A stretch of DNA of 30,170 bases, from assembly GCA_030638625.1 (NCBI GenBank), contig DAOWEE010000365.1:1-30170 (forward strand), in the 5' to 3' direction. The notes beneath the pieces are model-generated. The model had not been told where the DNA came from, did not search any database, and saw only the letters and a list, made by a program, of their open reading frames with translations. This stretch comes from Methanosarcinales archaeon (GTDB lineage: Archaea > Halobacteriota > Methanosarcinia > Methanosarcinales > Methanocomedenaceae). This document shows positions 8,408 through 30,170 of this stretch, in pieces. The position numbers and the translations under genes are program-made. The first letter of the stretch is position 1. Each line of letters opens with the position of its first letter.

Positions 8408-8472
8408 TGTTTTGAAATACCGCCTCTTTAATTAACAACATTTATATTATATTTGACGATATTTAAATATTT

Positions 8473-11113: not shown

Positions 11114-12005
11114 TGTCCATTCCTTCTATTCCGTCCATTCCCTCTAGTCCTTCCATTACTGTCATTAAGGCTTCAGGTATCATTTCTATTAAAGATAAAA
11201 TTGATGAATCCGGCTTGATATTACTGTAAAGTCCGGCCAATCTGTTAATTTTGGCAGCCATACAGCATGCCTTTTCTAACGTTTCTTCCTGAAATACCAG
11301 GGCTGATACAATACCTGTCAGGGTATCACCGGTACCGCCAACAGCTTCCATGGCAGGGATATTGGGCGAGTCTACCTTCTGGATAATATTGCCGCTTCGG
11401 GTTATATAATCTGTACTGCCTTTAACCAGCATAGTGTCAGGACACAGGCCGTTCTGCGATGCATTAGGTATCAGTTCAGGCATGCGGTCCCCTGCAAAGT
11501 CGTAAAGGTTCTCATTAACAAACATGGGATGTACCGCTTCAACATCGGCAAGAAATGCCAGCTCTCCCTTGTCAGGAGTAAATAAATCAAATATATGTCC
11601 TAATCCCGATATCTTTGCTCCGTACATGGCTCCTGCATCTGCAATCAGTTTTGGATTTTGGCCACTATCTTCAAGAGCAAAACCAAAATCAACCATTCCC
11701 TCAATCAGTGGTGTGATATAATGCAATGTGATTACATCAGGGTGAAGTGAAAAAATATCATCTTTTAGATATTTGTAAAGGCTGATGCTACCGTTTCCCT
11801 GGCCAGTATCTCCTGCAAGGACGCAGTATGGCAAGTCAATATCAAGTACGGAACACGTTGATACGGCAGCGGCAACCATCGCGGGTGTGCCGGCAGAAAT
11901 GTCTATATGTTTTCCCCCGATAACCAGTATGCCATCTACAATCTCCGCATTGCCACTGATAATCCCGGCATCGTCGTCAGGATATGTGCCTACTAATGTC
12001 AGCAT
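11106..12005 (-). CDS. Ribokinase-fold / YjeF-C (NAD(P)HX dehydratase-like) protein
   Basis: ADAGAMY.AK...DLFTPDKGELAFLAD...HP...MLVKGSTDYI...MEAVGGTGDTLTGIVSAL, carrying the GGTGD anion-hole motif. Coupled to the upstream DUF3343 gene by an ATGCTGA overlap. Confidence 0.75.
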   Translation of the reverse strand: MLTLVGTYPDDDAGIISGNAEIVDGILVIGGKHIDISAGTPAMVAAAVSTCSVLDIDLPYCVLAGDTGQGNGSISLYKYLKDDIFSLHPDVITLHYITPLIEGMVDFGFALEDSGQNPKLIADAGAMYGAKISGLGHIFDLFTPDKGELAFLADVEAVHPMFVNENLYDFAGDRMPELIPNASQNGLCPDTMLVKGSTDYITRSGNIIQKVDSPNIPAMEAVGGTGDTLTGIVSALVFQEETLEKACCMAAKINRLAGLYSNIKPDSSILSLIEMIPEALMTVMEGLEGMDGIEGMDIE

Positions 12006-12523
12006 CCACTCTCCTCCATGAATGTTCTTTTAGCTTCTGATAATGCCCTGTCAAGCAGGTATGCGCACAAAGAAGACCCGATGTCCAGGGGTTTAATGGG
12101 CGAGGCCAGGTTGGTATTTATCAACTGTTGGGCAATGTAGGGAATATCCGGGCATCCCCCACCCGAAACATTAACTATGTCTCCATTGGTTTTTGAGAAC
12201 GTAAGTTTCATATTGCCGGATTTGACCATAATAAATCCGTCAATCTCTTTTTTTGTGGTCAATTCAACAGGTTTTTGTCCGCACGTGTAAGCTATCAGGT
12301 CAATATAGTATATACATTCATTATCCAACAGTTTCATGACGTCTATCTGCTGGCCGGCATCTACCATTACAGATAAGTCACACCCTTTACGAATATCCGG
12401 AGGGGGTGCCGCCAGCATTACTTTAAATCCGTGCTTTTTCAGGATATACTCTGCACGTATAGCACTTTTTGAGTGTTCAAATAATATGGTTGCACTGCTA
12501 TCTGGTTCAAAGTTTTGTTTCAT
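11999..12523 (-). CDS. DUF3343-domain protein with Cys-containing C-terminal domain
   Basis: ILFEHSKSAIRAEYILKKHGF...APPPDIRKGCDLSV (DUF3343/Se-S carrier-like), followed by VNVSGGGCPDIPY...SLCAYLL. Confidence 0.7.
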   Translation of the reverse strand: MKQNFEPDSSATILFEHSKSAIRAEYILKKHGFKVMLAAPPPDIRKGCDLSVMVDAGQQIDVMKLLDNECIYYIDLIAYTCGQKPVELTTKKEIDGFIMVKSGNMKLTFSKTNGDIVNVSGGGCPDIPYIAQQLINTNLASPIKPLDIGSSLCAYLLDRALSEAKRTFMEESGC

Positions 12524-12525
12524 AT

Positions 12526-13047
12526 CTATATCCCAAATATTATGGAAATGATGGGTTTCACAATAAACCCGAAGACGAGGGCAGCAAAATAAAATCCCAG
12601 GATGTAAACAAGTGAGCCTTTATCTCCTTCCGATGCCCTGATATGCTGCCTGAAAGGACACCCATCGGCCATGACAGAGAACAGGCCAACACCAGCCCCT
12701 CCAATGATTGTAAGAATCACAATTCCAAATACCGTGTTACTGCTTTCATGGTCAACATTTCCTAATGGATTCGTACACGGATTATACAGGCTTTCAATGT
12801 TACCGCTGAGTCTGCTGGTAAAGGCCGGGAAATCCTGTGCACCTCCTCCTGCCAGATGGAGGACAAAAAAACCCACGGCTGCTGCTGTAATAATGGCAAT
12901 AACACCTTTCAATAGATGCGTGTCCCTCATCAGTGTGAAGTCCCTTATCCCACCGATTGTGCAAAAACCTGAGCGCTGTCCCATATAACCGATGATGAGT
13001 CCAACAATGAATGTTCCGGTAGAAATTATTGGGTCTATGAGCCCCAC
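12526..13047 (-). CDS. YeeE/YedE-family sulfur-compound transporter, half-size subunit B
   Basis: GLIIGYMGQRSGFCTIGGIRDF and GLFSVMADGCPFRQHIRASEG carry the FC and GC motifs of the family. Start placed at GTG 13047, overlapping the upstream stop; the track extends it to 13092. Confidence 0.8.
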   Translation of the reverse strand: MGLIDPIISTGTFIVGLIIGYMGQRSGFCTIGGIRDFTLMRDTHLLKGVIAIITAAAVGFFVLHLAGGGAQDFPAFTSRLSGNIESLYNPCTNPLGNVDHESSNTVFGIVILTIIGGAGVGLFSVMADGCPFRQHIRASEGDKGSLVYILGFYFAALVFGFIVKPIISIIFGI

Positions 13048-13499
13048 CTCCTGAGTATAGCAATCCCTGCAATAACACCGACAACCATCCACAGACCGCC
13101 GAACAATGCCAATGGTTCACCATATGCAATCCTGAGCAATAGACGGATGGGACAGGCAGCAAGCAGGAGTGCAAAGGTCATAACCAAAAATCCCAGCAGG
13201 AACATTCTGGTATTACTATCAACCCCACTGTTAGGCTGAACATTGTGCCTTCGGGCAGCCAGATGTGCCCCCGCCATAATGCCAACTACAGTCAACAGGG
13301 GAGTAAATAATCCTGCATTTGTCACTTCTATAATGTTTGAAGAAATAAGATGGTTAAATATCCATCCCAGCATATCACGGCTATGGCAGGCGACACATAT
13401 CCCGTATGCCTGGGGGCTGGACCAATTGAATGACCACTGGGCTGCCACGGCCAATAACCCGATGGCTGTTCCCGTTATTGCTGGTGTTATCCTGCTCAT
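13035..13499 (-). CDS. YeeE/YedE-family half-size subunit A with CXXCH-containing loop
   Basis: About four TM helices with PQAYGICVACHSRD, PLLTVVGIMAGAHLAA and LLAACPIRLLLRIAYG. Start at ATG 13499, 4 nt after the upstream stop; the track extends it to 13541. Confidence 0.72.
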   Translation of the reverse strand: MSRITPAITGTAIGLLAVAAQWSFNWSSPQAYGICVACHSRDMLGWIFNHLISSNIIEVTNAGLFTPLLTVVGIMAGAHLAARRHNVQPNSGVDSNTRMFLLGFLVMTFALLLAACPIRLLLRIAYGEPLALFGGLWMVVGVIAGIAILRRWGS

Positions 13500-13503
13500 G
13501 GAC

Positions 13504-14007
13504 TTACCTTTTAAAGCGTATCCTGCAGACTGCATCTCCATCTGGTATCATTGTTTCTTTGGTCATTTTTGCGTCAGGGAAAAATTCGAAAAAGAGAGCT
13601 TCTGTTGCCTTGAAGTAAAGTCTGCATGCTTCCTTGATAAGGTCAGGTGATAGGCCCAAATCCTGCCATGCTTTGAACTTTGCACATGAAGAATGTTCAA
13701 GGACCACCTCATCAGGAGATACAATTTCCATTTTAATTGGAGAGATGATACTGTTGGTCTGCCCCCTTAGAGACATGCCGTAATATTTCCCAAAATCTTT
13801 GAAGGATTCAACCTTAAAGCCAGAATCTTTCATTGCCTTAGCATCCAGACGTCCCTTTTCTTCCATGGCACGTTCAATCATCTTTAATCCATTTGAACCT
13901 GATATTTTGTAGATCTCATTGATAATAGATCCGAACATAGTAGCATTATCAGACCCCATAAAATGAATGAATTCCCTACAGTTTTTCACCGCATTTTCGT
14001 TATGCAT
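13504..14007 (-). CDS. L-2-amino-thiazoline-4-carboxylate hydrolase-like / V4R-fold protein
   Basis: 167 aa with pattern HSSCAKFKAWQDLGL...EAC...FFP..KMTKETMIPDGDAVCRIRF (three conserved-looking Cys). First gene of the minus-strand run. Confidence 0.6.
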   Translation of the reverse strand: MHNENAVKNCREFIHFMGSDNATMFGSIINEIYKISGSNGLKMIERAMEEKGRLDAKAMKDSGFKVESFKDFGKYYGMSLRGQTNSIISPIKMEIVSPDEVVLEHSSCAKFKAWQDLGLSPDLIKEACRLYFKATEALFFEFFPDAKMTKETMIPDGDAVCRIRFKR

Positions 14008-14280: not shown

Positions 14281-17200
14281 ATGATAAAAACAAATGGAAT
14301 TTTGTTAAAACAAGTGTTAGTAGGTTATATATTAATTTCAATCATAATTTTATCAGTATTTGCTTCAATTACTCCCGGCCTAGCCGAAGGTTTGGAAGAA
14401 ACAGCAATAGACAATTCTTTTGAATTAGTTTCTCAAAATGGCCTGAACATTCTCTATAGATTGTTCAATCCTTTAATGGGTACTGCCTCCGAACTTGCCA
14501 ATATTGCAAATGATTCATCAAACACCCTAGATATCACCAACTCAACCCTTAACACATCAACAAATTCCACTCCGGCCCCAACCCCAACTTCAACATTAGC
14601 TCCGACCTTAACTCCAACATCGATTCCAACACTAACTCCAGAACCAGTATTCAATTCATCAGAAGAGACCTCATCCAATAATCCACAAACCACCAGCCCG
14701 AAAAAAACCCATGTAACAGGCAATGTCAAGGACCATGAAAACCAGCCAGTATCAACAAATATCTATGTGACAGGACATGATAACCGAAACCGGATGATAC
14801 ATACATCCAGCCAGAATTTCAATCTTGAACTTGAAGAGGGCGATAATGTTGTCTTTGATGCCGGGACAAAAGGTGTGACTGCCCGGTTCAAAATAAAGGG
14901 CAACTCCAGCAATTCCATCATTACCCTTGACAATTTCGGCAAAGCCAAACCTGCTATCACTGGAACTCCACAGTTCAACTCAATGAAATTCGTTGAGGTT
15001 CATGCAGATAACACTGACTACGAAACTGTCACCATCACAATCTCATACTCAGAGGACGAACTATCCGGATTTGACGAAGGGCTACTGACAATCTATCATT
15101 ATACAGGTGGGCAGTGGATACCAACCATATCTCATGTCGATAGAGCCTCGAACACCATCACTGCCACCGTTAACAGTCTATCCTATTTTGCTGTGGGACA
15201 GGGTAGTGGAATCAACATTTTTGCCAGATTTGACAGTACAGTGAATCCTGATGATACTATCACTGTATCCGGTGGTGTATACTATGACAACCTGACAACT
15301 GTACCGGACGCAGATATTAATATCACAATCCAGACAACTGCCATCAGTACAGATATAACCACAGATAGTCTTGGTAATTTCAAAGCAACCCTCCCCCCAC
15401 CTGCCAGCACTGGCTCTTATAACCTCAAGATAAATGCCGTCAAAGGTGCCATGGATGCCAATACCACCAGCAACCTTCAGGTAACTTCCACACCTCTGTT
15501 CAGGATAACCGGAACCATGCAGATAGACAATGAAGATGTGGTTGCATCTGATGCAAACATTACCATCAGCAGTGAACTTCCAGCACAGTCAGTATCTGAC
15601 AGTGCCCAGTTAACACTTACAGGTACAACATCGGTCACAGGTACCAAAATTTACAACCTGTTTACAGATACTAAGGTGGATGACGGTATTAATGCCACAG
15701 GGACATACACGTTCCTGGTGGATTCCCTCACATCTGGTGAGGTCACCAAGAACTGGGCCAGTATCTATCTGTATGCTATCTCCTATACCGGGCTGAGTGT
15801 TGCCGAAGAAAGTTATGACACATATCTGGACGGGACATACAAGGATTCTTCTTCTTTTGTCAAGCCGTGGGACCAGTCGACATGGTACTGGAACAATTCC
15901 TTAGCAACAGGAGATATTCTATATAATACCACACAGACCGTAGATGTGGTCACCCCGAATCCGTCCACACTGGTCCGGTTCAACCTGACCGGGGATATGC
16001 ATATCAATTTCACCAGTTCAGGTCTTAGCAAACCTTCAAATTCAAAACTGTATGCTGATAATGTGCTTCTACTCTCCACCACCGGTGACCTTACAACAGA
16101 GAATATTAACCTTACCGGTTTTCTGGGTGATAGCAATGACCTTATCGTTACTTCAGATACAAAAGGCGGTATCAGTTATGCCCTGACATCCCAGTTCCAC
16201 AAATATATGAACGCTTCCGTGGTCGATGACGGAGTTAACTATACAGTCACGCTTACAGCCACCAATAACAATTCAGAATCATGGTACTCTCCAGCCTTTG
16301 GATATACTGTTCCCCAGGGTGCCGGGAATTTCGTGATTATTGATAAGGATAACAATGAACTGAATGTCACATCTTCATGTACTCTTCCATCTGATGGTGG
16401 TGAAGTTGACATACCTGCATCAGTGATAGGTGAGATTAAAAGCGGCATTATCAGGACATTCACACTTTCGTATAGTCTGAAGCAGTTGGATGTTACAACC
16501 CGTCCTTTTGCTGACACTTACATGCCCGGGCAAACTGTTGATATCTATACAGATGTGTTGTACAATGGGTCTGTTGTCAGTGATGCGACGGTTACAATAA
16601 CTATAAAAGACCCACTGGATGTAACAGTATTTAACGGCCCTGCAACATGGAACGGTAAAAATTATTCCATCACAAAAACCACCAACGATACCTGGCTCAT
16701 TGGCGTTTATCATGTGAATGCCAGTGCTTCAAAGACCGTGGACAGTGTGCTTCGTACCGGCATTAATAGTACCAGTTTTGTTGAAAAACGTCTCATATTA
16801 TATGTGCAGGCCAACGGTCCCTATCCACCACTTAGAAACATCACCCTCTCAGGCCGGGCATATTACAGCGATGAGAGTGCAGAAGGGGGCAAGACTGTCA
16901 ACATCTCTGTGGGTGGAATCAATACTACTGCCACTACAAATGCCACCGGACATTTCCAGACAATTGTTCCGGGTATGGCAGTCGGTTCTTACCCAGTCAT
17001 CGCCAATATCACCAACGGATACGGCCTTACCGATTCAGATAGCGATACTGTACTCGTGCTGGACACACCATTCTTTATCCTTATTGATACTGAACTTAGC
17101 GAAACATCAGGCCAAGCATTGCTTGAACCCGACCATAATTTTACAGTAAACATTCCCAATAGCATGGATGTGCTCAGTTCCACCATCACACTGACTGGAA

Positions 17201-20200
17201 TTACACAAAAGACCGAAGAGTATGACATCTCACCACCTCCCATTTCAATGCTTTCCATCGGTACCACACAATTCGATTTTGTAAACGGGACATTTACCGT
17301 GATAGTACCTCCGTACAGAAGCGTTACCGTCAATGATGTCAGTATGACAGTCACAGCCTTCCCACAGGGCTCGGGTGTCCAGGAATCGGTATTCAATAAT
17401 TCGATTGACGGCATTGATGTAGGTGAATCACGATATGTTGTTCCTGATACACCTTCAACCCACACCTGGACTGATGATATCACTGCAAGAGTTACACCAG
17501 GGACCGCACATGATGTCAGGATTACGAAACTTGATACATTCACAATCGATTACAAGTTCTTAGTGATGATGCACGTGAACAGGACAGGATTCCTGGACAC
17601 ACCATTGAATCCACGTGCATATGTGGTCGGCAACATCATTTATGCTGAACCGGGAGATATGCTGACCAATTCACATACTACAGACATTACTAAGTTCCTT
17701 GAGGCGGGCAGCAATTCAGTAAACTTTGTCAATGACCGCAATGCACTGGTGAATTATATTATACAAACAAGGGTCAGAGATTGGAATTATACACAAGAGA
17801 CAATAGCAGAGATTCCCAGCAGATTCGAGATTGAGAACGTATTGTACGCTGCAGCTACTGACCAGAAACTGATGAACCCTGAGGTCAGGCATCCGTTAAA
17901 GAGATTAGCATCTAATCTTACAGTCTATGACATTGACAATAATACCGACATAACAGCAAGCTGTACCGTAGCAGATAACGAACTGTTCATCCCGACCAAC
18001 CTTATCGGTCCCATTAACGCGGGCGATACCAGACTCTTCAATGTCTCGTATGATGCACCCCGACCCAATATCTCACCGTCGCTCAACACATCAGTATGCA
18101 ACCATAATGATACCATCCTGATATCAGTAGACATAGAATTCTACGGCGTCCCGATGACTGATGCGAATGTTTCTGTCACAATCGCCAACAATACCAATAC
18201 AACCTGGCAGGGTACTCTGACCCATACCGGAAGCGGGACATATACTGTCCTTTACCAGATACCGGCCAACGCAACATTGGGCATCTATAATGTCACAGTG
18301 TCTGCATATAATGAATCTACCAATATGGACGACGAAGTGGTGTCGTACCAGTTAAGCCAGCTTACCATTACTCCATTTACTATCGGGCCATTCGTGACCG
18401 GGAATGGTGGAAATATAAACGGGAATGTGAACGATTCCAGGACTGATGCACCTATAAATAGCGCAACGGTTGAAATTACCATTTCCAACCAGTCAGGAAT
18501 CGTGAACCAGACAGAAGTGTATTCCAATGTCGCCGGGTACTTCTCTTTTGTATGGGACGCAACAATGGCAGGAGATTACCTTCTCACGATAACTGCCAAT
18601 GATTCTGACCTCACAATAGGTACACTGGAACAACCCATTGCAGTAGAATACGATGTGGTACTGGTACCGAACAGGACAGATTACAATGTCAATTATACAG
18701 CCACACTGAACGTGTCTGTACACGACCTGGGCAGTATTGATGTGCCAGGTGCTAATGTATCCGTACTTATCGATATTCCGGCAGCAGGTAATGAGACACT
18801 GTCAACCGGTAACGGACGGTTATCGTATCTCGGCGGCGTATATACGGGGACGTTCAATACTACCGCTAACATGGGTACGTACAATTATACTGTAAATGTT
18901 TCAAATGTTACGGCTAACGGCACCATTACGGGTAATGATGTCGGCAGTTTCAGGGTGAGCGACCTACACATAACCGAAATGTCGGACAAATTGGTGTATA
19001 TTGTTGATGAAAACGTGACTGTATGGGGCAGTGTTGAGGATTTGGAAACAGGACTCTTTGTTGAAAACGGTACTTACAATATCTCTTTATTCAACTCATC
19101 GGGTTTTGTGACTTCCAGGTCAGGGAGTATATTGACAGTACCGGACACTATAGGTGCGGCATTGTATGATGAAGATACGTTCGAGGTTGCAGGTGATGAC
19201 TGGAATTCTCGCAACAATGAAGACCCTGTCCGTGACTCCTCCACTGCTTATGCCGGGTCATGGAGTTTGCATATGACCTGGCCCGGTACTACTGCCTGGG
19301 GAGGACGAAACTTTGAAGGGACCAATAACCTTGAAGCTGGTCAGACCTCTTCAGGATATTCCACCACTGATTATCCGTACATGAGCATGGCATACCGTAT
19401 CAGTCCTGACGACAAGATCAATATGCTCATACTGGTGAACGGTGCATGGCGTTCGTTAGATGTTACCCAGGGAATCAATACAACAGGGAGTTACCCCACA
19501 GTGGCTAACTGGGGTTCGGTAAATTCAGATGACCAGTGGCACTGGACCGAGATTGATCTGGACGGGCAATTGGACGCATCCATGGGAATAGGGAATCACC
19601 AGATAACTGGTATTATCTGGTATCCAAATAGTGCAATAGACGGGTATCTTACCGGCGATTTCTGGATAGATGATTTCAGGATTTCCAATAACTCCATTGC
19701 CACTTCATATGAGGAGACGTTCAGCGGTCTTCCTGCCGATCCATATACTGCAATGGTAGATATATCATACCTGACTCTAGTTGGAGCAAATTCATCTGAT
19801 TTTACTATCAATTACAATGTTAACTCCAGTATTCCCTCTCCACTGTACAGTGTGGGCAGGGATGTGAATATCAATATCAGTGTATTTGATACGGGTTCGA
19901 TTCCTGTTACAGGTGCCAACCTTACAGTCAATATCACGAACAGTACAGGCTTAGTCAAAAGCATATCAGGTTCAAATATTACCGATAACAATAACGGCTA
20001 CTATAATACTACATATATTACTGAAATTGAAGGCGATTTCAATATATCGGTCCATGTCGAGAAGGGCTCGGCTGTAGGTGATGCTCCTGTGTTGCCATTC
20101 AGGGTAACCCAGTTCTATGTGGACGTTGCACCTGAATTCCAGTGGTATGAGGTTGGAGATAATGTTACATTCACCACACTTACAGGCCGGCTTTGGGACT

Positions 20201-23200
20201 TACAGGGAGCACCAAAATGGGCCAATGTCACAATTCAAGTATTCGGCCCTGTGGGTACCCTGATACAGAATATCACACTCACAAACCAGTATGATAACTT
20301 CACTCACAGTTTTTATCTGGGTTCCACCAACAATTCAGGTACTTACTCCATCCAGGTAAATGCCAGCGAAATTGAATCAGGTGGTAACCTTGCAGCATCC
20401 AATACATCATCGTTCAATGTGGAATATTTCGTGGATTCTGCTACGAACCGTTCGCAATATAATACTGATGATACCGTCAACGTGACACTTAATATCAAGA
20501 ACAGTACCACCAATATCAACAGTGCCTCCGTTGATGTCAATGTGACCTATATTGGTCCGTCCGATTGGTGGAATGCAAGTTACTGGAATTTTGACCGTGA
20601 GTACAGAGTGGGTATCAGTACAGTAAATACATATAACCGCAGCAGGGAAGATACTTATATTGTGGTTCGTGGTTCTGACCTTGCGTCTGCGGGAGTATCA
20701 TTGACCAACCTGCCTATAAATTCGACAAGGGTTATTGCGTATTCAACACAGGAAAACCTTTCATCCAGGAATGAGGTTGCCAGGGTTGTATCTGATATTA
20801 ATGGTGACGGGTACCTGAACACCAGTGATGAAATTATATTCCTTGCCAATTTCTCAGCCAGTGAAAGTAAGAATTACTGGTTGTATTACGATTACGGTTA
20901 TGACATAACCGCTTCCCCCGAATACACCATTCCCCTGAAACTTCAGTTATACCTTGCCGAAGAATTCATTATAACCAGTGATTACTATGCCCGTGTTTAC
21001 TATAAACACAGTAACAGGGACGGCACATTCGGCGGATATGTCCAGATAGATGACAACAATTATTATGCCAGGGGGGCTGTCATTGCTGATTTCGACAATG
21101 ACGGTGACTATGATGTAGTATCTGGCGACCGTTACAACCTCTTCTTCCATGAATGGACCGATGTGGGTACATTCACTAAAACCAGTGTCACGCCAACCTT
21201 CTCTGCCAGTAATTATTTAATGGATATGGCTACTGCCGATTTTGATGAAGACGGCAACATGGATTTCATTGTAGGCGGCAATAACGATGACCTGTACCTG
21301 TACGAGGGTGATGGGATGGGGGATTTCACTAAAATCACCATAACCACCAACGCACCGGGAACAGCAGGCAGAGGGAAAGATGCGGGTGACGTGAACGAAG
21401 ACGGGCATATGGATTTTGTCTATGCAGAAAACCCGACCGGTAAGGTATATGCATATTATGGAAATGGTGCCGGTACATTCGCAGCTCCGGTCGAGCTTGT
21501 GACCTTACCAGATACTGACCCCTATGGTGTTGCATTGGGCGATTTTGATAATGACGGTCATCTTGATATCATTGCAAATGGCGGAGCAGGAGGGGCATAT
21601 CATATCTACAGCGGGGACGGGACTGGTATTTTTGTTGATGAAGGCATGAAATTTGATGTCAATCGCCTTGGTGGTGTTGATGCATTTGATTATGACCATG
21701 ACGGTAACCTTGATGTTATCCATACCACTTATGATACTGAATATACCTATTACCGGGCAGGAAATGGCAATTTCGGATTCGGGTCATTGAGTCTTGGAGT
21801 CAATGGTTACAATGTAATGGGTATCAGTGCACCGCCAATGCAGGATATTATGATTCCATCCATTGGTATCAAGCAAAACCTCAGCCATACCCAGGTAGGA
21901 AGCAGTCTTGCCACTGGTCTGGGTAACGGTAACTACAATGCTGAGTTCACTCTCTCGGATGCACAGCTTGGTATTTACCTGGTTGAAACCGATGTTACGT
22001 CACCCTGGCCGGGTGATGATGCTGTTACATTCTTTGTACGCAGCCTGGATGAAGTAAATAATACCTACGGCCCGCACAACTTCAATGGCACACACCAGTC
22101 CCCCATCCTTCCTGTTATAATTTCAGGGACCATCAGGGATAGTGAATTCAATAATACCCTGAACAATGCCTATGCAAATATCACTATCAGGTACCCCAAT
22201 AACACAGTTGCTGCCTACCAGTCAATAACTACCGATGCCAATGGTATTTTCAATCACGACTTTACGTCCCAGTTCAACAGCAACTCACCTGCCGGCACCT
22301 ATAATGTCAGTATCCTGGTAAACGATGGCGGGATAATTCAGTTAATTGAGACTTACCTTACAGTATCAGATGTGTACTCCAGTTGGGCTGACCCTGCCAA
22401 AGATTACCGGGTTGCTATTATACTGAACAATTCAGCCAATTCAACACCAGTAACGTACAACGAAAGAGGTTTCGTGCTTGAATTGCCTGGCAGTGTAGCT
22501 CAATCTTCAGTGGCAATCACGGATATCAACGGGAACGCTGTTGGCAACTCGCTTATCTGGGACAATGCCAATACCATAAATGTCACACTGGACAACTTCA
22601 GTCTCGGCATGTTCGAAGGCGGGCTTGTCTACATTTATTTTGACAGGGATGCACAACTTCCTCCAGATAATACATCACTTACCAGCAGTATCTGTCCGTT
22701 AATTGAAGGTGCAATTGAAGGATATTGGATGGTCATCACAAACGACCTTGCCATATACAATCCCTCCACTACTGCCCAGATAACTGCAAACCTGACACTT
22801 GCCAATGGTACACAATTAACTGGTTCCACTGTGAATTTCAGTGTTTATTATCCAGATATGGCACTTGCATACGGACCGCACAATATAGTCAGCGACCCTG
22901 CAAATATCTCGGTTTCAGGAAATTCAAATACACTATCATATTCAATTCCAAACCTGAAAGGCATATATACAGTCGTTGTCAATGCCACATCCCCCAACGG
23001 CATACCCAGGACAGAAATCTCAACATTCAATGTGGGCGGTCTGGGCGTAACAGCAGATACTGACAGGTCATATTACAATACCAGGGATGATGTATGGCTC
23101 ACAGTCGATGTTACTGATTTAGGTGTCCCTGTAAACAATGCTTTAGTTACAGTGGATTTCAATGACCCCAGTGGTCTGTTACCCTATGAATACAACGAAA

Positions 23201-26200
23201 TAAATTCAACGAATTCAGATGGTATTGCAATCATACACTGGCCAATGATATCCCCGGATTCACCAGTCGGGAACTATTCCATCACAGTGAATGCCAATAC
23301 CGCCAACGATTCAGGCTATAATGGTTCACAGACCATAGAGATTGACAACTATGTAACAACTCTCGACCTGAACGATAATTTAGTAAGCCTTACCAATCCC
23401 GTCACAGCCAGCGGTTCCACAACCCACAACGGCAGTGAAATCCCGTCCTGGGTCAACATTTCAGTGACGTACCAGTCTGCATTTATCGATGATACCGTTC
23501 CCTATGGTGCAAGTACAGGAAATCAATGGATATGGGATTACAATAACGTGCACAGCGGCAGTTACTCCCATCTCCAGGAAGTCCAGGGTCCGGCAAGTGT
23601 TCAGCATATATTCTACGATGCATACAGCGGATACCGTGCAGGCAGCGGCGAAAATATCTCGGTCTGGGTTTATGTTGATTCCATTCCTGAAACAGTTGAT
23701 GAGATTATGGTCCAGTTCCATGCCAACGATAGCTGGAACCACCGTGCCTACTGGGGTGTGGACAATATTCCCCTGGGTACCAATAATACCACATCGAGAC
23801 AATATATTGGCCCACTTCCCGCAGCAGGTACATGGTACGAACTTGTCCTGACCAGTTCACAGGTTGGCCTGGACGGACTGGTAGTGGACGGCATGGCCTT
23901 TGCCGTAAACGAGACCAGCAGCAACGTGGCAAGGGTATGGTTCGATGAAGTAACCTTCGAATTTGCCAATACTCATGATTCATATCTTGAGAACCAGAAT
24001 GTCTCAACCCCTTATTCGTATGTCATATCCAATACTTTCACAGAAGGATTCAACGACACCTTCACTACATTCAACAGCACTGAATGGGACAATTCTTCCA
24101 CCTCAATCCACAACATCTCAGCAGAATGGATGGAATTAAACGGCAACGGCCTTGATTTCAATGCCAATTTCTCAGGCAGTACCACCTATTCCAGAACAGC
24201 GTACCCGGTACTCACCGCCGATTTCATGACCGATAACCTCAGCGGCGGACTGGTCGTTGCAGTTGAAGGCAACCCCACATCAGGCTATCGCCGCCATGGT
24301 ATCTATATCGATAAAGCCGATGGCATACTCAAAACCCAGACCTATGACCTTGACGGCTGGCATTATGAAAACCTGTTCACTCCCGAGATTGGTAAATGGT
24401 ACACAATGGAGGTCCGGTTCTATGCTACGGAATCACAGCTATTCGTGTATTCCAGGGATGACAGTTCCAGGCCCATGCCCGATAAAGCAGACAGTACCTA
24501 CAACCTGACCGACTGGAACCCGAATTTCCATTTCTGGACATTCGACAATACAGGCTACATTGATAATGCTGCAGTCACCACCCGCTCTAATACCAGTGCA
24601 CTGCCATGGGTAGGCGATTATATCGTAACAGGCCTAAGCAGTTATTCTAACCTATACACCGTAAACGTCAGCACCATACTGGTATCCAACTTGAACATCA
24701 CTGTCAATACAGGTGATTCCTATGACCTCACAATAGGAAACCCTGAACTCAATAATGTCACCATCAACGGAACTGTGCAGGATAACCGCTCAGGTGTACC
24801 CCGTCCGTCCCCCGTACTTGTGTATGTAACCGCACCTGACGGATTGATATCGGTCTACAACCTGCAAACAGATGTTAACGGTTCCTTCACAGTCAGTTTC
24901 ACAAGGCCATCCCTTATCGGTACTTATGATGTAACCGTCACAGCCAAGGATACAGCAGGTACCACCGGCAGGACCGATACATCCTTTGACATCCAAATCG
25001 GGTCAACCATTGCACCCACCATCGAGACCATCAATCTCATGGATACTGCCATACTTACGGTTGAACTGTTCGATGACGTTATCTTCGATGATATGGAACA
25101 GGTCACTTCCAACTGGTCATACCGTGCCGGTACTACAGGAACCGTCCGGAATATGTCAGAAGAAGTCCATGACAGAACACGCCTGTATCATAAGAGCGGG
25201 ACCCAATCCCAGAAAGTGGATTATTACGTCACCAAAAGCACAAACGAATACATGTACCTTGAATCGGGCTTAGGTCCAATTGATGTGTCACAGGTCAACA
25301 ATATAACATTCTGGCTCTACCTGGACCTGGTTGACGCATTCGATGCAGTGGCACTGGTCCTTGAAAATGACGCCACAGGAACGAGCAGTGACGAGCGTAT
25401 CTACGGTCAAAACCCCGTACCTGGCTGGAACTATTACTCATTCAATGTCAGTGATTTTGGTATGGACCTCACTCATGCTCACTACCTTACAGTCCTGATA
25501 GATGACGATAATAGTGCCAGTGAAGTAGAAACCAGAGGTTCGGTCTACATTGATGATTTCAAGGTCATTAACGGCAATTCCATCACAGGTGCCAGTGTAT
25601 CCATCAACATCACCAAACCTGGCATGTCAGTATTGAGTTATTCAACTCCGGCAGACATTACCGACCTTGGAAACGGAAGATATTCATTAGACTTTGCAGG
25701 AACTGATGAATATGGCAACTATAACATATCAGCCATATCCACCAGTGATGGTTACACCAGTACCGCCACTACCCAGTTCATAGTAGACCGTCTGAATGTT
25801 TCACCGGTATTACTGGAAACACCATACATAGTTGGTGATACCGGTAACTTCAGTGTCAGTGTCCATTCCAATATGTCAACACCATTCGATGGAACAGTTT
25901 CCCTGAACCTGACCCTACCAAACGGCACATCTGTTAATTATAACACATCCGCATTCAGCCAGTCAACTGAAAATTATGCCCGCACCGGTACTGCCGGCGG
26001 GTCAGGATTTGGCAGTGTAACCAGAATCAACGACGGTTCATTTGTATATCCTGCAACCACTGCTGCCTGCATTGGGGATTATGCACAGATAACATGGGCA
26101 CAACCCGTAACCATTAACCAGGTCATGGTGTATTACGATACCAACAAATGGCCAACCTCATACAGGATACAGGTACTGGATACCGACGGTGTCACCTGGG

Positions 26201-29200
26201 TTGATAAAAAGGTCGTGAATGGATTCACTACAACCAGTTTCCCTTATGTCATCGACGATATTCCCACCTCGACCACAAAAGGTGTGCGTATCTCCTATGA
26301 AACTTCCAATAACGCCCAGAACATATACATCTTCGAAATGTGGGTCTATAATACAGCAGCCACATTCACTCCCTTGTTACCCATATCAGGAGACTATACC
26401 GCCCAGTTCACTGCCCTGGACTCAAAAGATGTCAGTGGAACCACTTCAATTACAGTCCCTGTCAACTTCAACGTTGAGACCGTCTTTGATAAATTAAGCT
26501 ATGACCCTGGCGACAATGCCACGGTATCTATCAGTGTCTTTAACGGCACCCATTACGTGCCAGGTGTTTCAGTCTCTTCACAATTGAGTTATATCGGTAA
26601 CGGGTCATTGATTGCAAGCAACTCGACGACCACCGATTCGAATGGTACTGTGGATGTTATGTACCAGATTCCTGAAGACTATTCATCATATTACATTAAT
26701 TCATCAGTAGCACATAACGGAATAACAGGTTTGGATTCGGAAGTTACCACGTCTGCCCATCTTAAAATGTGGATAGACCCTGCTGAAGTCCTGGTTGGTC
26801 ACCCAAGCTGGAATGCTGACCTTACTCCTGAAGAATACAGGGATATTTCCATTCATGCTGAATTCCTGACCAAAGCCGGTCATATCCTTGATGACCAGAC
26901 GATTACTGCCAATATCTACAAGTATGACGGAACTCTTGTAACCAGTCTTCCCTTGACCGGAGTAGATGGTCTATATACGGCTGATTATACCATCGCCGGA
27001 AACAGTCCCGAAGGCACGTACTGGGTTGAACTGGATAAATATCCAGGCATTAATGAATATTTCAGTGTCATGGAATGGGGCTGTACCAGATGTCATATAA
27101 ATCCTGGTATGGACTATAATCACTATTACGCCCATGCCATTACCAGTGGTGCCTACGGTAATTCTGACGGGCCAGTGTCCCCATCCAATTTCAGCAAGGA
27201 ATATGTTCATGAGGTGCATCCGCTGGTAGACCCTGCTCCGGCAGGTACAGGGGGTTCAAATTGTGGTTATCACAACAATGCAAGGGATGTTAATTGTGTC
27301 AAATGTCACCTGACCGAAGTACTCCCCTCTGCCTGTCCTGATTGCCATAACAGCGGTCAGGATAAATGGTCTAATGTTTTGTCAGAAGATTATGGTGCAG
27401 ATGTACATGCAGGCATCAATGTTGACACAGCCAAAAACAAAATCGCTAATTCATCACATGGAGGCAATCCATCTTTTGCAGTGGACAGCAATGATGATAC
27501 GTACTGGTCTCCTGATGGTGTCACCAATCAGATCATGGAAATCGACCTTGATGGTGCATATTATGTGGACGGTGTCCGAATTGCGATGTCCAATTATAAA
27601 TCCACCTATACCGTGCAAGGACTGAACAATGGCAGCTGGATAACCCTGATATCGTCCACCACATATTCAAATTATGATAATGAACAGCTCTATACTTTCA
27701 GCAGCCAGAATATCTCAAGGGTCAGGTTCACGGTCAGTTCATGGAGCAGAGTGTGGACTGGTACGGGTTATTGCAGCTCTCCCACCCATACTGCCGCCGT
27801 TCTTACCGAACAGCCGAAACTTAAATCCCTGAATGTATATTTACCCAACAATGTTTCCCTGACATTACTCAATCCGGATACACATGATTCATGCCAGGTC
27901 TGCCATGGCGGCGATATCTCCAACGATATCCAGCCCACAATTCCGGATTGTACAGACTGCCACCCTGAATCCTCGGGTTCCGGTATGCAGGTGATGCCGG
28001 ACAACATGAGCACTGTCAGCAGGGAACTGGAAGATTATGAGGATGTTTCAGATATCATTGTATATTCCGCACCTGGTTTCCCTGTCTCTACAGTCAGCCT
28101 GACGGCATCAACCGACCAGGCTGTGGAAGGGACAAAATCAGGTAAACTGGATTATTCCATGGCTCTGGGTGTTGGCAGGATATATATTGACCAATCAGAC
28201 CTTGAATTCACCAATGCTACCAGTATCAAATTCTGGCTTTATGGAAATCCGGCAGACGACAATACCCAGTTCCAGGTCAGTATCAGGAACAATAAGTCAG
28301 GCAAATGGCATTACAACACAGCCCAACATCTGAACTGGTCAGGCTGGAAAGAGGTCGAAATTCCAATAACATCATTGAGCGAACTTGAAATTCTTTATAT
28401 CTCCCATGCAGATATGCTTCGGATACAGCTTGAGAATTATGATTCAGACAGTGGTACCATTTACATTGATGATTTGCATGTGGAGCGCAAAGGCACACAT
28501 ACCCAGTATCAGGAAATTGAATGCGGTACGTGTCATGAATCAGTACACAATACCCAGTATTCTTATGATTGTGAGAATTGCCACCAGACACAAACCCATG
28601 GCAATATGACAGCTTCTGAACCAACATGTGTCAACGTGGATTGCCACCATTATATGGAAAATGGCAGCCTCATTGTGCGAAATAGTACAAATGAAACCAC
28701 CCTGGTTGAGATACCAATGGATGGTGCCAAGATATCAGAATGCGGCGTATGCCATAGTCTGGCCGAACCTCACGATAAACAGTGGAACTATGTATGTATG
28801 GACTGTCACCGCGACAGCGAACACGGTCAGGTAGATGAGTCATATACCGACTATGAAAAAGCGTCAACCTGCCTGAAATGCCACAATGACCCCCATGACC
28901 TCCAGAATGAACTATCAGCCAAAGGCGGATGTAACGGCTGTCATCAGCACCGTATCCACGGCCAGAACAGTCTCACCACCCCATACAATGAATCCATCCA
29001 TTTGGACTGTTTGCGGTGTCACGGAAACCCTGTGAATGATTCAGAACCAATACCTGTAGGCCTCGGTCATCCCGGCGAGATACATATCACACAGACCTAT
29101 GGACTTACCGCAGCAGAGTGCATGTTCTGTCATGAGAATGCCACAAACTCGTATGAATTGCATACCGGATTGAATGTGGATTTGGCAGATACCACACTGG

Positions 29201-30170
29201 TCGAATCAATTGAGAATGAAAGTGTTTGTATCATCTGCCATGACCCTGTGCCATTATTTAGCAACACTAGCCTGGAAGCAAGAGATGACCTCTTACTCGA
29301 ACCCCATGCCACCCAGGTGGCAGGTCACGGTAATGTCAGTTGCTTTGTATGTCACGGTCACAGCCCTGCCCAGTTAACCCTGAATTTCGGTGCGGATTGT
29401 GTAGGCTGCCATATTAATGAAGCAGTGGCTCCTGTAAATTCCACTAACGGCACCGATATCCCACCCACACAGGTCCTGGGTCACGGGAACACCGAATGTT
29501 CAGAGTGCCACGGGCATACCAACTCACAACTCACTTTTGTAGGTGAAACCGCGGAAGAATGTATGGCATGCCATGAAAATGCGTCCGCTGAAGTTAAGTT
29601 ATTGGAATATGAGGACCCCGTATCCAATGGAACCGTGCCCTTAAGCCAAAGCGGTAATGTGTGGACAGTAACACCCCCACAGGTTGTGGGTCACGGCAAT
29701 GTTACCTGTCTTGAGTGCCACACCCATGCTCCCAGCGACTTCGTAAATGTTGAGGATTTCCTTGGTCCCGATTGCACAGCATGTCATATGAATGAAAGCA
29801 GGAACGTATCATTGATCAATGACACCATACCAAAGAACAGCAATACCGTTGTAGTGGATAATTCCAATTCTACCTGGGTTGTCACATCACCAATAGTCCT
29901 GGGTCATGGTAATGCATCCTGTGCTGAATGTCACGGGCATACCAATTCTAACTTGACTTTCCTGGGCAGCACTATCAGTTCATGTATTGACTGCCATGAG
30001 AACAGTTCCAGGGAATCATTGCTGCTGGATGATACCATACCTGAATCAGATACTACGACCATAATCAACGATACTGTTAATCCCAAGATAGTAAATCCAC
30101 CGCAGGTAGATGGGCATGGAAATGTGAGCTGCTTTGTATGCCATGACCACGCACCCAGTGATTTCAGCAA
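14281..30170 (+). CDS. Giant secreted adhesin-like multiheme c-type cytochrome (>5,296 aa, at least 23 CXXCH; 3' end beyond window)
   Basis: Manual translation of frame +1 from ATG 14281 finds no stop to the window end. It has a signal peptide (MIKTNGILLKQVLVGYILISIIILSVFASITPGLA), a Pro/Thr linker, many Ig-like repeats, FG-GAP repeats, and discoidin- and CBM-like sandwiches. CXXCH motifs start at 27082, 27295, 27334, 27892, 27949, 28522, 28570, 28741, 28795, 28870, 28930, 29008, 29119, 29227, 29341, 29398, 29497, 29560, 29707, 29773, 29920, 29983 and 30130. It is absent from the supplied ORF track. Confidence 0.95.
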   Translation, partial: MIKTNGILLKQVLVGYILISIIILSVFASITPGLAEGLEETAIDNSFELVSQNGLNILYRLFNPLMGTASELANIANDSSNTLDITNSTLNTSTNSTPAPTPTSTLAPTLTPTSIPTLTPEPVFNSSEETSSNNPQTTSPKKTHVTGNVKDHENQPVSTNIYVTGHDNRNRMIHTSSQNFNLELEEGDNVVFDAGTKGVTARFKIKGNSSNSIITLDNFGKAKPAITGTPQFNSMKFVEVHADNTDYETVTITISYSEDELSGFDEGLLTIYHYTGGQWIPTISHVDRASNTITATVNSLSYFAVGQGSGINIFARFDSTVNPDDTITVSGGVYYDNLTTVPDADINITIQTTAISTDITTDSLGNFKATLPPPASTGSYNLKINAVKGAMDANTTSNLQVTSTPLFRITGTMQIDNEDVVASDANITISSELPAQSVSDSAQLTLTGTTSVTGTKIYNLFTDTKVDDGINATGTYTFLVDSLTSGEVTKNWASIYLYAISYTGLSVAEESYDTYLDGTYKDSSSFVKPWDQSTWYWNNSLATGDILYNTTQTVDVVTPNPSTLVRFNLTGDMHINFTSSGLSKPSNSKLYADNVLLLSTTGDLTTENINLTGFLGDSNDLIVTSDTKGGISYALTSQFHKYMNASVVDDGVNYTVTLTATNNNSESWYSPAFGYTVPQGAGNFVIIDKDNNELNVTSSCTLPSDGGEVDIPASVIGEIKSGIIRTFTLSYSLKQLDVTTRPFADTYMPGQTVDIYTDVLYNGSVVSDATVTITIKDPLDVTVFNGPATWNGKNYSITKTTNDTWLIGVYHVNASASKTVDSVLRTGINSTSFVEKRLILYVQANGPYPPLRNITLSGRAYYSDESAEGGKTVNISVGGINTTATTNATGHFQTIVPGMAVGSYPVIANITNGYGLTDSDSDTVLVLDTPFFILIDTELSETSGQALLEPDHNFTVNIPNSMDVLSSTITLTGITQKTEEYDISPPPISMLSIGTTQFDFVNGTFTVIVPPYRSVTVNDVSMTVTAFPQGSGVQESVFNNSIDGIDVGESRYVVPDTPSTHTWTDDITARVTPGTAHDVRITKLDTFTIDYKFLVMMHVNRTGFLDTPLNPRAYVVGNIIYAEPGDMLTNSHTTDITKFLEAGSNSVNFVNDRNALVNYIIQTRVRDWNYTQETIAEIPSRFEIENVLYAAATDQKLMNPEVRHPLKRLASNLTVYDIDNNTDITASCTVADNELFIPTNLIGPINAGDTRLFNVSYDAPRPNISPSLNTSVCNHNDTILISVDIEFYGVPMTDANVSVTIANNTNTTWQGTLTHTGSGTYTVLYQIPANATLGIYNVTVSAYNESTNMDDEVVSYQLSQLTITPFTIGPFVTGNGGNINGNVNDSRTDAPINSATVEITISNQSGIVNQTEVYSNVAGYFSFVWDATMAGDYLLTITANDSDLTIGTLEQPIAVEYDVVLVPNRTDYNVNYTATLNVSVHDLGSIDVPGANVSVLIDIPAAGNETLSTGNGRLSYLGGVYTGTFNTTANMGTYNYTVNVSNVTANGTITGNDVGSFRVSDLHITEMSDKLVYIVDENVTVWGSVEDLETGLFVENGTYNISLFNSSGFVTSRSGSILTVPDTIGAALYDEDTFEVAGDDWNSRNNEDPVRDSSTAYAGSWSLHMTWPGTTAWGGRNFEGTNNLEAGQTSSGYSTTDYPYMSMAYRISPDDKINMLILVNGAWRSLDVTQGINTTGSYPTVANWGSVNSDDQWHWTEIDLDGQLDASMGIGNHQITGIIWYPNSAIDGYLTGDFWIDDFRISNNSIATSYEETFSGLPADPYTAMVDISYLTLVGANSSDFTINYNVNSSIPSPLYSVGRDVNINISVFDTGSIPVTGANLTVNITNSTGLVKSISGSNITDNNNGYYNTTYITEIEGDFNISVHVEKGSAVGDAPVLPFRVTQFYVDVAPEFQWYEVGDNVTFTTLTGRLWDLQGAPKWANVTIQVFGPVGTLIQNITLTNQYDNFTHSFYLGSTNNSGTYSIQVNASEIESGGNLAASNTSSFNVEYFVDSATNRSQYNTDDTVNVTLNIKNSTTNINSASVDVNVTYIGPSDWWNASYWNFDREYRVGISTVNTYNRSREDTYIVVRGSDLASAGVSLTNLPINSTRVIAYSTQENLSSRNEVARVVSDINGDGYLNTSDEIIFLANFSASESKNYWLYYDYGYDITASPEYTIPLKLQLYLAEEFIITSDYYARVYYKHSNRDGTFGGYVQIDDNNYYARGAVIADFDNDGDYDVVSGDRYNLFFHEWTDVGTFTKTSVTPTFSASNYLMDMATADFDEDGNMDFIVGGNNDDLYLYEGDGMGDFTKITITTNAPGTAGRGKDAGDVNEDGHMDFVYAENPTGKVYAYYGNGAGTFAAPVELVTLPDTDPYGVALGDFDNDGHLDIIANGGAGGAYHIYSGDGTGIFVDEGMKFDVNRLGGVDAFDYDHDGNLDVIHTTYDTEYTYYRAGNGNFGFGSLSLGVNGYNVMGISAPPMQDIMIPSIGIKQNLSHTQVGSSLATGLGNGNYNAEFTLSDAQLGIYLVETDVTSPWPGDDAVTFFVRSLDEVNNTYGPHNFNGTHQSPILPVIISGTIRDSEFNNTLNNAYANITIRYPNNTVAAYQSITTDANGIFNHDFTSQFNSNSPAGTYNVSILVNDGGIIQLIETYLTVSDVYSSWADPAKDYRVAIILNNSANSTPVTYNERGFVLELPGSVAQSSVAITDINGNAVGNSLIWDNANTINVTLDNFSLGMFEGGLVYIYFDRDAQLPPDNTSLTSSICPLIEGAIEGYWMVITNDLAIYNPSTTAQITANLTLANGTQLTGSTVNFSVYYPDMALAYGPHNIVSDPANISVSGNSNTLSYSIPNLKGIYTVVVNATSPNGIPRTEISTFNVGGLGVTADTDRSYYNTRDDVWLTVDVTDLGVPVNNALVTVDFNDPSGLLPYEYNEINSTNSDGIAIIHWPMISPDSPVGNYSITVNANTANDSGYNGSQTIEIDNYVTTLDLNDNLVSLTNPVTASGSTTHNGSEIPSWVNISVTYQSAFIDDTVPYGASTGNQWIWDYNNVHSGSYSHLQEVQGPASVQHIFYDAYSGYRAGSGENISVWVYVDSIPETVDEIMVQFHANDSWNHRAYWGVDNIPLGTNNTTSRQYIGPLPAAGTWYELVLTSSQVGLDGLVVDGMAFAVNETSSNVARVWFDEVTFEFANTHDSYLENQNVSTPYSYVISNTFTEGFNDTFTTFNSTEWDNSSTSIHNISAEWMELNGNGLDFNANFSGSTTYSRTAYPVLTADFMTDNLSGGLVVAVEGNPTSGYRRHGIYIDKADGILKTQTYDLDGWHYENLFTPEIGKWYTMEVRFYATESQLFVYSRDDSSRPMPDKADSTYNLTDWNPNFHFWTFDNTGYIDNAAVTTRSNTSALPWVGDYIVTGLSSYSNLYTVNVSTILVSNLNITVNTGDSYDLTIGNPELNNVTINGTVQDNRSGVPRPSPVLVYVTAPDGLISVYNLQTDVNGSFTVSFTRPSLIGTYDVTVTAKDTAGTTGRTDTSFDIQIGSTIAPTIETINLMDTAILTVELFDDVIFDDMEQVTSNWSYRAGTTGTVRNMSEEVHDRTRLYHKSGTQSQKVDYYVTKSTNEYMYLESGLGPIDVSQVNNITFWLYLDLVDAFDAVALVLENDATGTSSDERIYGQNPVPGWNYYSFNVSDFGMDLTHAHYLTVLIDDDNSASEVETRGSVYIDDFKVINGNSITGASVSINITKPGMSVLSYSTPADITDLGNGRYSLDFAGTDEYGNYNISAISTSDGYTSTATTQFIVDRLNVSPVLLETPYIVGDTGNFSVSVHSNMSTPFDGTVSLNLTLPNGTSVNYNTSAFSQSTENYARTGTAGGSGFGSVTRINDGSFVYPATTAACIGDYAQITWAQPVTINQVMVYYDTNKWPTSYRIQVLDTDGVTWVDKKVVNGFTTTSFPYVIDDIPTSTTKGVRISYETSNNAQNIYIFEMWVYNTAATFTPLLPISGDYTAQFTALDSKDVSGTTSITVPVNFNVETVFDKLSYDPGDNATVSISVFNGTHYVPGVSVSSQLSYIGNGSLIASNSTTTDSNGTVDVMYQIPEDYSSYYINSSVAHNGITGLDSEVTTSAHLKMWIDPAEVLVGHPSWNADLTPEEYRDISIHAEFLTKAGHILDDQTITANIYKYDGTLVTSLPLTGVDGLYTADYTIAGNSPEGTYWVELDKYPGINEYFSVMEWGCTRCHINPGMDYNHYYAHAITSGAYGNSDGPVSPSNFSKEYVHEVHPLVDPAPAGTGGSNCGYHNNARDVNCVKCHLTEVLPSACPDCHNSGQDKWSNVLSEDYGADVHAGINVDTAKNKIANSSHGGNPSFAVDSNDDTYWSPDGVTNQIMEIDLDGAYYVDGVRIAMSNYKSTYTVQGLNNGSWITLISSTTYSNYDNEQLYTFSSQNISRVRFTVSSWSRVWTGTGYCSSPTHTAAVLTEQPKLKSLNVYLPNNVSLTLLNPDTHDSCQVCHGGDISNDIQPTIPDCTDCHPESSGSGMQVMPDNMSTVSRELEDYEDVSDIIVYSAPGFPVSTVSLTASTDQAVEGTKSGKLDYSMALGVGRIYIDQSDLEFTNATSIKFWLYGNPADDNTQFQVSIRNNKSGKWHYNTAQHLNWSGWKEVEIPITSLSELEILYISHADMLRIQLENYDSDSGTIYIDDLHVERKGTHTQYQEIECGTCHESVHNTQYSYDCENCHQTQTHGNMTASEPTCVNVDCHHYMENGSLIVRNSTNETTLVEIPMDGAKISECGVCHSLAEPHDKQWNYVCMDCHRDSEHGQVDESYTDYEKASTCLKCHNDPHDLQNELSAKGGCNGCHQHRIHGQNSLTTPYNESIHLDCLRCHGNPVNDSEPIPVGLGHPGEIHITQTYGLTAAECMFCHENATNSYELHTGLNVDLADTTLVESIENESVCIICHDPVPLFSNTSLEARDDLLLEPHATQVAGHGNVSCFVCHGHSPAQLTLNFGADCVGCHINEAVAPVNSTNGTDIPPTQVLGHGNTECSECHGHTNSQLTFVGETAEECMACHENASAEVKLLEYEDPVSNGTVPLSQSGNVWTVTPPQVVGHGNVTCLECHTHAPSDFVNVEDFLGPDCTACHMNESRNVSLINDTIPKNSNTVVVDNSNSTWVVTSPIVLGHGNASCAECHGHTNSNLTFLGSTISSCIDCHENSSRESLLLDDTIPESDTTTIINDTVNPKIVNPPQVDGHGNVSCFVCHDHAPSDFS
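14569..14646 (+). repeat. Pro/Thr-rich low-complexity linker within the giant ORF
   Basis: TPAPTPTSTLAPTLTPTSIPTLTPEP. Confidence 0.85.
21085..21720 (+). repeat. Five FG-GAP/VCBS-like Ca2+-binding repeats (beta-propeller) within the giant ORF
   Basis: ADFDNDGDYDVV, ADFDEDGNMDFI, GDVNEDGHMDFV, GDFDNDGHLDII and FDYDHDGNLDVI at about 50-aa spacing. Confidence 0.9.
27082..30144 (+). other. Multiheme region of the giant ORF (23 CXXCH plus one CX4CH within the window)
   Basis: Motifs in order: CTRCH, CVKCH, CPDCH, CQVCH, CTDCH, CGTCH, CENCH, [CVNVDCH], CGVCH, CMDCH, CLKCH, CNGCH, CLRCH, CMFCH, CIICH, CFVCH, CVGCH, CSECH, CMACH, CLECH, CTACH, CAECH, CIDCH, CFVCH. Confidence 0.93.
29311..30170 (+). 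repeat. Tandem diheme repeat (xQV.GHGNxxCXXCHxH...CXXCH), alternating A/B types, at least 4.5 units
   Basis: The His of GHGN starts at 29326, 29482, 29692, 29905 and 30115, giving spacings of 52, 70, 71 and 70 codons. Confidence 0.9.

Follow-up and report, generated by a model that had tools for sequence, protein, structure and literature searches.

The window analysed here, one whole contig of 30,170 nucleotides, carries a contig-end-truncated gene (14281–30168, + strand) for a giant secreted multiheme cytochrome c, in which two sandwich domains of the galactose-binding-domain fold lie between hemes near the start of the heme series. Homologues that lack one or both of these inserts keep the same heme and histidine register, and we consider it very probable, from comparison of their sequences, that the inserts are looped out of a continuous heme chain.

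The gene is a single stop-free frame of 5296 aa that runs off the end of the contig still open; its product has 23 CxxCH motifs, beginning at residue 4268. A full-length database copy (P0001; 6,943 aa, 99.4% identical to the window protein) contains 71 CX2-4CH motifs, corresponding to about 71 hemes, and is ordered as an N-terminal signal peptide, a stalk of about 4,230 aa made of MG2/Ig, FG-GAP and sandwich domains, and then the hemes. Its one hydrophobic segment is N-terminal, and there is no C-terminal membrane helix. As a secreted chain with at least 20 CxxCH motifs, the protein falls among the ANME giant multiheme cytochromes. In Pfam searches, its N-terminal 4,260 aa matched MG2, FG-GAP and Ig-like families and no beta-helix family, the domain used to test for MHC-C, while an S-layer search across the entire chain, used to test for MHC-A and MHC-B, gave no match.

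Among the giant cytochromes described from ANME are (i) MHC-A, -B and -C, together with an unclassified 86-heme ERB4 protein (Chadwick et al. 2022, PMC9012536); and (ii) MHC-D (PMC12180501). The domains fused to such proteins are of S-layer, peptidase-like or pectin-lyase-like type (PMC9012536, PMC12180501); in types A and B one S-layer domain interrupts the hemes, and a role in partner recognition has been suggested for the pectin-lyase-like domain (PMC9012536). The window protein shares with them an ANME-2 host, secretion, tens of CxxCH motifs per chain, fused non-redox domains and a proposed role in extracellular electron transfer. However, no S-layer, M6-peptidase-like or pectin-lyase domain was detected in it, P0001 lacks the C-terminal helix, and both the 4,200-aa MG2/FG-GAP stalk and the inter-heme lectin-fold domains are undescribed in PMC9012536 and PMC12180501. 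Our literature search likewise found no report of discoidin or CBM inserts between hemes. Judged by its domain content, the window protein is a novel form of ANME giant multiheme cytochrome, outside types A, B and C.

The McrA of the host is 77–79% identical to that of named Methanoperedens and about 70% identical to that of Methanosarcinaceae, and proteins of the same genus carry the label 'ANME-2 cluster archaeon', which together place the host in ANME-2/3; it presumably belongs to ANME-2a/b (Methanocomedenaceae). The McrA of family f3 is 88–90% identical to that of named Methanoperedens.

Sandwich domains between the first hemes

In the region of interest, CxxCH motifs start at 27082, 27295, 27334, 27892, 27949 and 28522. 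Hemes 1–3 (27082–27348, + strand) are directly downstream of the last MG2-like domain and are followed, as a sequence-only reading of this DNA had proposed, by an F5/8 type C (discoidin/CBM32-fold) domain (insert 1; 27412–27846, + strand), with the motifs picked out by that reading in place. The next segment, His4535 with hemes 4 and 5 (27883–27963, + strand), precedes a CBM11/Lyase_N/FlaA-like sandwich of the galactose-binding-domain fold (insert 2; 28021–28488, + strand), after which the chain resumes, again as proposed, at heme 6, with His4740 ahead of it (28498–28536, + strand). No other of the 70 gaps between motifs in the full-length protein is as long as the resulting spacings of 186 aa (hemes 3 to 4) and 191 aa (hemes 5 to 6).

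Insert 1 scores 45.3 bits against Pfam F5_F8_type_C (E 1e-11), well over the cut-off of 28.2, and a profile search retrieved CBM32 structures at E 2e-31. Its AlphaFold2 model (pLDDT 84.7) has the CBM32 fold, matching 4zxe with Z 16.4 and an rmsd of 2.0 A over 121 residues; the match to the non-lectin IFT25 is about equal (Z 16.2). Insert 1 shares its fold and the retained Ca-site Asp and Thr with CBM32 modules (Paenibacillus chitosanase DD1/DD2, 4zxe, 4zz5; AlyQ CBM32), but identity is only about 22–25%, the last loop, extended by about 16 residues, contains a Cys, the last-strand Glu is substituted, and no carbohydrate-active enzyme is attached. The lengthened loop (27736–27810, + strand) matches the variable ligand loop of CBM32s (PMC5651945) and is modelled at low pLDDT; Trp, Arg and Cys4498 (27772–27774) are invariant in the six of six orthologues that cover it, the Cys having been overlooked in the sequence-only reading. 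Binding sites are variable among CBM32s (PMC5651945), and the discoidin domain is the least conserved segment here (47–49%).

For insert 2, the Pfam CBM_11 score is 36.3 bits (cut-off 27) in a partial match covering profile positions 12–137 of 182, and the Lyase_N score is 29.7 bits. Foldseek with the 550-aa model returned CtCBM11 (1v0a, 6r31; E 6e-7), and the Atlas neighbours of this insert are Lyase_N, CBM27 and CBM30. Although single-sequence PDB searches with each insert as query gave no matches, the profile searches did, and profile and Foldseek comparisons thus bear out the discoidin and CBM folds (4zxe; 1v0a, 6r31). Insert 2 has the fold and acidic Ca-site motifs of the CBM11 of Clostridium thermocellum Cel5E (1v0a, 6r31), together with core tryptophans; however, the two are only 16–17% identical, and Lyase_N, CBM27/30 and FlaA are about as near. 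Non-lectins (FlaA, NDUFAF1) match the fold equally well. The profile alignment to 1v0a does not recover the binding cleft of CtCBM11, whose tyrosines we take to be residues 22, 53 and 129: a counterpart exists for Tyr22 alone, in the ANME-2a/b clade but not in Methanoperedens, while Tyr53 is replaced and the Arg126–Tyr129 loop is absent. Conservation of the CBM-like insert (75–81%) is similar to that of the hemes (69–81%).

Sandwiches also occur in the heme-free stalk, where a related CBM-like domain (25186–25569, + strand; iE 5e-10) and a weakly related discoidin-like domain (25969–26355, + strand; iE 0.006) were identified.

Homologues with and without the inserts

A related-loci search of genome and metagenome contigs returned no matches. 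Orthologues with the discoidin insert were found in three of seven same-genus genomes and as three database proteins, and wherever these sequences extend far enough, the CBM-like insert is present as well. P0004 comes from a contig of 1 kb, and we took its 'Anaerolineales' label to be a probable case of misbinning. The discoidin domain is missing from seven homologues, namely P0003 and six giants of Methanoperedens type, in which a linker of 14–17 aa bridges the D-x-H motif to heme 4. A second CBM-like sandwich follows heme 8 in five of the six Methanoperedens-type giants, the sixth ending before that point; the window protein has none there. Heme 8 itself (28627–28647, + strand), overlooked in the sequence-only reading, has a CX4CH motif in the window and CX2CH in orthologues.

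Neither insert is present in 13 Methanoperedenaceae proteins from 11 genomes, which have the same MG2 end, W-G-C-x-x-C-H start and heme series with spacings of about 28 and 31 aa, compared with 186 and 191 aa in the window protein. In the G038 protein, heme 4 follows D-x-H after four residues, and heme 6 follows heme 5 after 26. The insert-excised query scored 285 against this protein, whereas 500 motif-preserving shuffles scored 102 ± 13 (maximum 154) and 28 unrelated cytochromes of the genome at most 134, indicating that the relation is one of homology and not generic motif likeness. With motifs masked, the insert-free family scores 58–111 and the controls at most 58, so that its weakest members overlap the controls.

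The histidine register is equally constant. His4376 (27406–27408, + strand), which borders insert 1 on its 5' side, belongs to a G-x-D-x-H motif whose G, D and H are invariant in the alignment, and is a candidate distal heme ligand. The His-x7-Cys spacing ahead of heme 6 is the same in insert-free homologues, and both this His and G-x-D-x-H keep their position in every architecture; His4535 is restricted to discoidin-bearing orthologues. In a tree of the heme segments with the inserts excised, the discoidin-bearing group (98/99) and the insert-free group (100/100) were recovered; as the insert-free family is on a long branch, the order of gain and loss is deduced from parsimony rather than from rooting. 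The termini of CBM32 domains converge (PMC5651945). Together, the insert-free homologues, the fixed register, the tree and these converging termini establish insertion into loops and point to a heme stack that is likely preserved, in agreement with the looping out envisaged in the sequence-only reading.

An AlphaFold2 model of residues 4251–4800 built from 12 sequences had a mean pLDDT of 44, and of about 30 in the heme parts, at which heme–heme distances are unreadable. A complex prediction combining the heme 1–3 module, four hemes and the discoidin domain scored 0.04, which is evidence in neither direction.

Other ANME cytochromes, from four genomes (G105, G070, G103 and G009; L064–L066, L075), have a different insert of about 140–165 aa between hemes; insertion into heme chains thus recurs. 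The giant gene is split across several adjacent frames in G107 (L048, G107:C2:58195-75045) and G103 (L045), unlike in G071 and G072, where it occupies a single frame. In G072 and G103 the chain terminates in a membrane-helix-like segment, which would put the hemes considered here at the distal end of the wire. Such a position fits recognition modules close to the electron exit; P0001 is without such an anchor.

Origin and possible roles of the inserts

In the account that we regard as probable, the segment would be where the heme wire of a giant surface cytochrome of ANME starts on its N-terminal side, and it would descend from a compact MG2-plus-multiheme module that survives insert-free in Methanoperedenaceae. 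Galactose-binding-domain-fold sandwiches, with termini side by side, would have entered inter-heme loops: the CBM11-like insert in all giant forms, the discoidin domain only in the ANME-2a/b clade, and the second CBM-like domain only in Methanoperedens. The hemes would most likely remain stacked and conducting, with the sandwiches jutting sideways around the first of them, where they would shield or position the wire end and present non-redox surfaces to which a glycan, a protein, a mineral or the extracellular matrix could bind. Within the ANME-2a/b clade, the Cys of the discoidin loop may tether its domain back to the degenerate heme site described below. In this account the folds, the points of insertion, the distribution of the inserts among homologues and the residue conservation are observed, whereas the heme stacking, ligand binding, Cys tether and role in extracellular electron transfer are what we infer.

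The glycan recognition that had been proposed for the inserts does not follow from the data, as the resemblance is at the level of the fold, which non-lectins share, and most CBM11 binding residues are missing. That the inserts bind glycan of some kind seems to us, on their sequences, somewhat short of an even chance.

They might instead be purely structural and work without a ligand, as spacers or shields stabilised by Ca, insulating the terminal hemes or stiffening the stalk where it meets the wire. This plausible though not favoured reading would suit the retention of Ca-site residues and the loss of most known sugar-contact residues, the sandwiches nested elsewhere in the same stalk and the heme-burying inter-heme expansions of archaeal OmcZ (PMC13748539); it fits less well with lectin-fold domains having been gained whole at three loops in different lineages, and with the conserved Trp and Arg on the discoidin ligand face.

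Rather unlikely, in our estimation, is that the inserts are true lectins docking the wire on the glycosylated surface cytochrome or envelope glycan of a sulfate-reducing partner, a variant of which had been the suggestion of the sequence-only reading. Carbohydrate-binding modules have both of these folds, the Trp and Arg ahead of the discoidin ligand loop are invariant, and the discoidin insert is variable and confined to the marine ANME-2a/b clade; putative N-glycans have been reported on archaeal OmcZ wires (PMC13748539), and the pectin-lyase-like domain of ANME MHC-C has been proposed to serve a comparable role (PMC9012536). However, the CtCBM11 binding tyrosines are mostly missing, non-lectins match the folds equally well (IFT25 with Z 16.2, FlaA, NDUFAF1), sandwiches are also present in the heme-free stalk, and Methanoperedens keeps the CBM-like insert. 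Methanoperedens mostly respire without a sulfate-reducing partner. Furthermore, the protein is rich in N-glycosylation sequons, so that self or matrix glycans would be equally available as ligands.

It is very unlikely that the inserts break the wire into separate redox modules (hemes 1–3 and hemes 4–5, as capacitor or sensor) on flexible tethers, since, although the two spacings are the longest in the protein and one first-module heme site has decayed in two groups, the register and invariant His are as in the insert-free homologues and the heme 4–5 segment has too few residues, and too few His, to be a module by itself.

The family bears on how ANME archaea direct their electron wires towards a partner or mineral. 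On a single heme scaffold, nature provides deletions in series, from proteins with no insert to those with one or two and with differing pairs. The series shows that a heme chain can accept entire domains of binding type, and it supplies small expressible constructs in the form of 150-aa inserts and an insert-free cytochrome of about 555 aa.

The degenerate heme site and the neighbouring genes

Between hemes 1 and 2 lies a degenerate heme site, C4328-x-x-H4331 (27262–27273, + strand), which was also overlooked in the sequence-only reading. The Cys and His positions align in 15 of 15 homologues. In 17 relatives the site is an intact CX2CH to CX4CH motif, whereas the second Cys has been lost, and the first Cys and the His kept, in each of the seven sequences with a discoidin domain and in one group from Methanoperedens (G072, G103, P0008). 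In P0006, this Cys and the discoidin-loop Cys are the only non-motif cysteines in 1,836 residues. In G072, the C-x-x-H Cys is the sole non-motif Cys in 5,442 residues; it can thus persist alone, as would suit a single-thioether heme, and, as the site here occurs without a discoidin domain or partner Cys, Cys4328 and Cys4498 need not be linked. Strict co-occurrence of C-x-x-H with the discoidin Cys was rejected because the former is present and the latter absent in G072, G103 and P0008, and a pairing of Cys4498 with Cys3930 of the upstream sandwich was rejected because Cys3930 is missing in P0006 and P0003.

From these patterns we tentatively suggest, as one candidate among several, that a disulfide or Cys2His2 metal staple joins the C4328 site to Cys4498. 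It appears distinctly unlikely that C4328-x-x-H4331 still binds heme and that Cys4498, 170 residues away, contributes either an iron ligand or the second thioether; other possibilities are a thiolate ligand and roles of the two cysteines that are unrelated. Were such a split motif real, a heme-binding site in two separate pieces would link a lectin-fold domain directly to a redox centre where the wire ends. The degenerate site illustrates how a putative heme site can be invisible to CxxCH counting. Atypical motifs are known, such as CX15CH of MccA/SirA and CXXCK of NrfA, often with a dedicated lyase (PMC6976685). The window site resembles these as a non-canonical attachment site inside a multiheme protein, but it lacks the second Cys, and its heme occupancy is putative.

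Other unusual cysteines were noted. A cytochrome of 3,653 aa with 77 hemes, encoded near the homologue in G107 (L049, G107:C2:83741-94699), has extra cysteines at about residues 520–526, forming another atypical motif that follows the W-G-C start. Past the window, P0001 has CX5CH (residues 6101–6108) and CX11CH (6588–6601) motifs that are kept in G003 and are probably additional atypical heme sites.

Genes neighbouring the giant cytochrome include those for S13, S4, S11, archaeal RpoD and a CcmF. The CcmF paralogue (5515–7443) is 7 kb upstream of the giant gene; a fixed linkage was not supported, the CcmF orthologue of G003 (77%) being on a different contig from its cytochrome. In G072 and G103, which have the single-Cys C-x-x-H site, a CcmF paralogue is immediately downstream of the giant cytochrome (L050, G072:C86:44359-46446; L052, G103:C87:5635-7755), whereas none was found in the flanking sequence retrieved for G071 (CX4CH) or G107 (CX2CH); with two close relatives set against two others, this apparent association is only a lead. 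Other features of the window include a tRNA gene (1571–1655, − strand) and two PD40 beta-propeller genes on either side of a PMT-type glycosyltransferase gene (7403–11113), next to which is a split Sulf_transp (YeeE/YedE) cluster (11106–13541).
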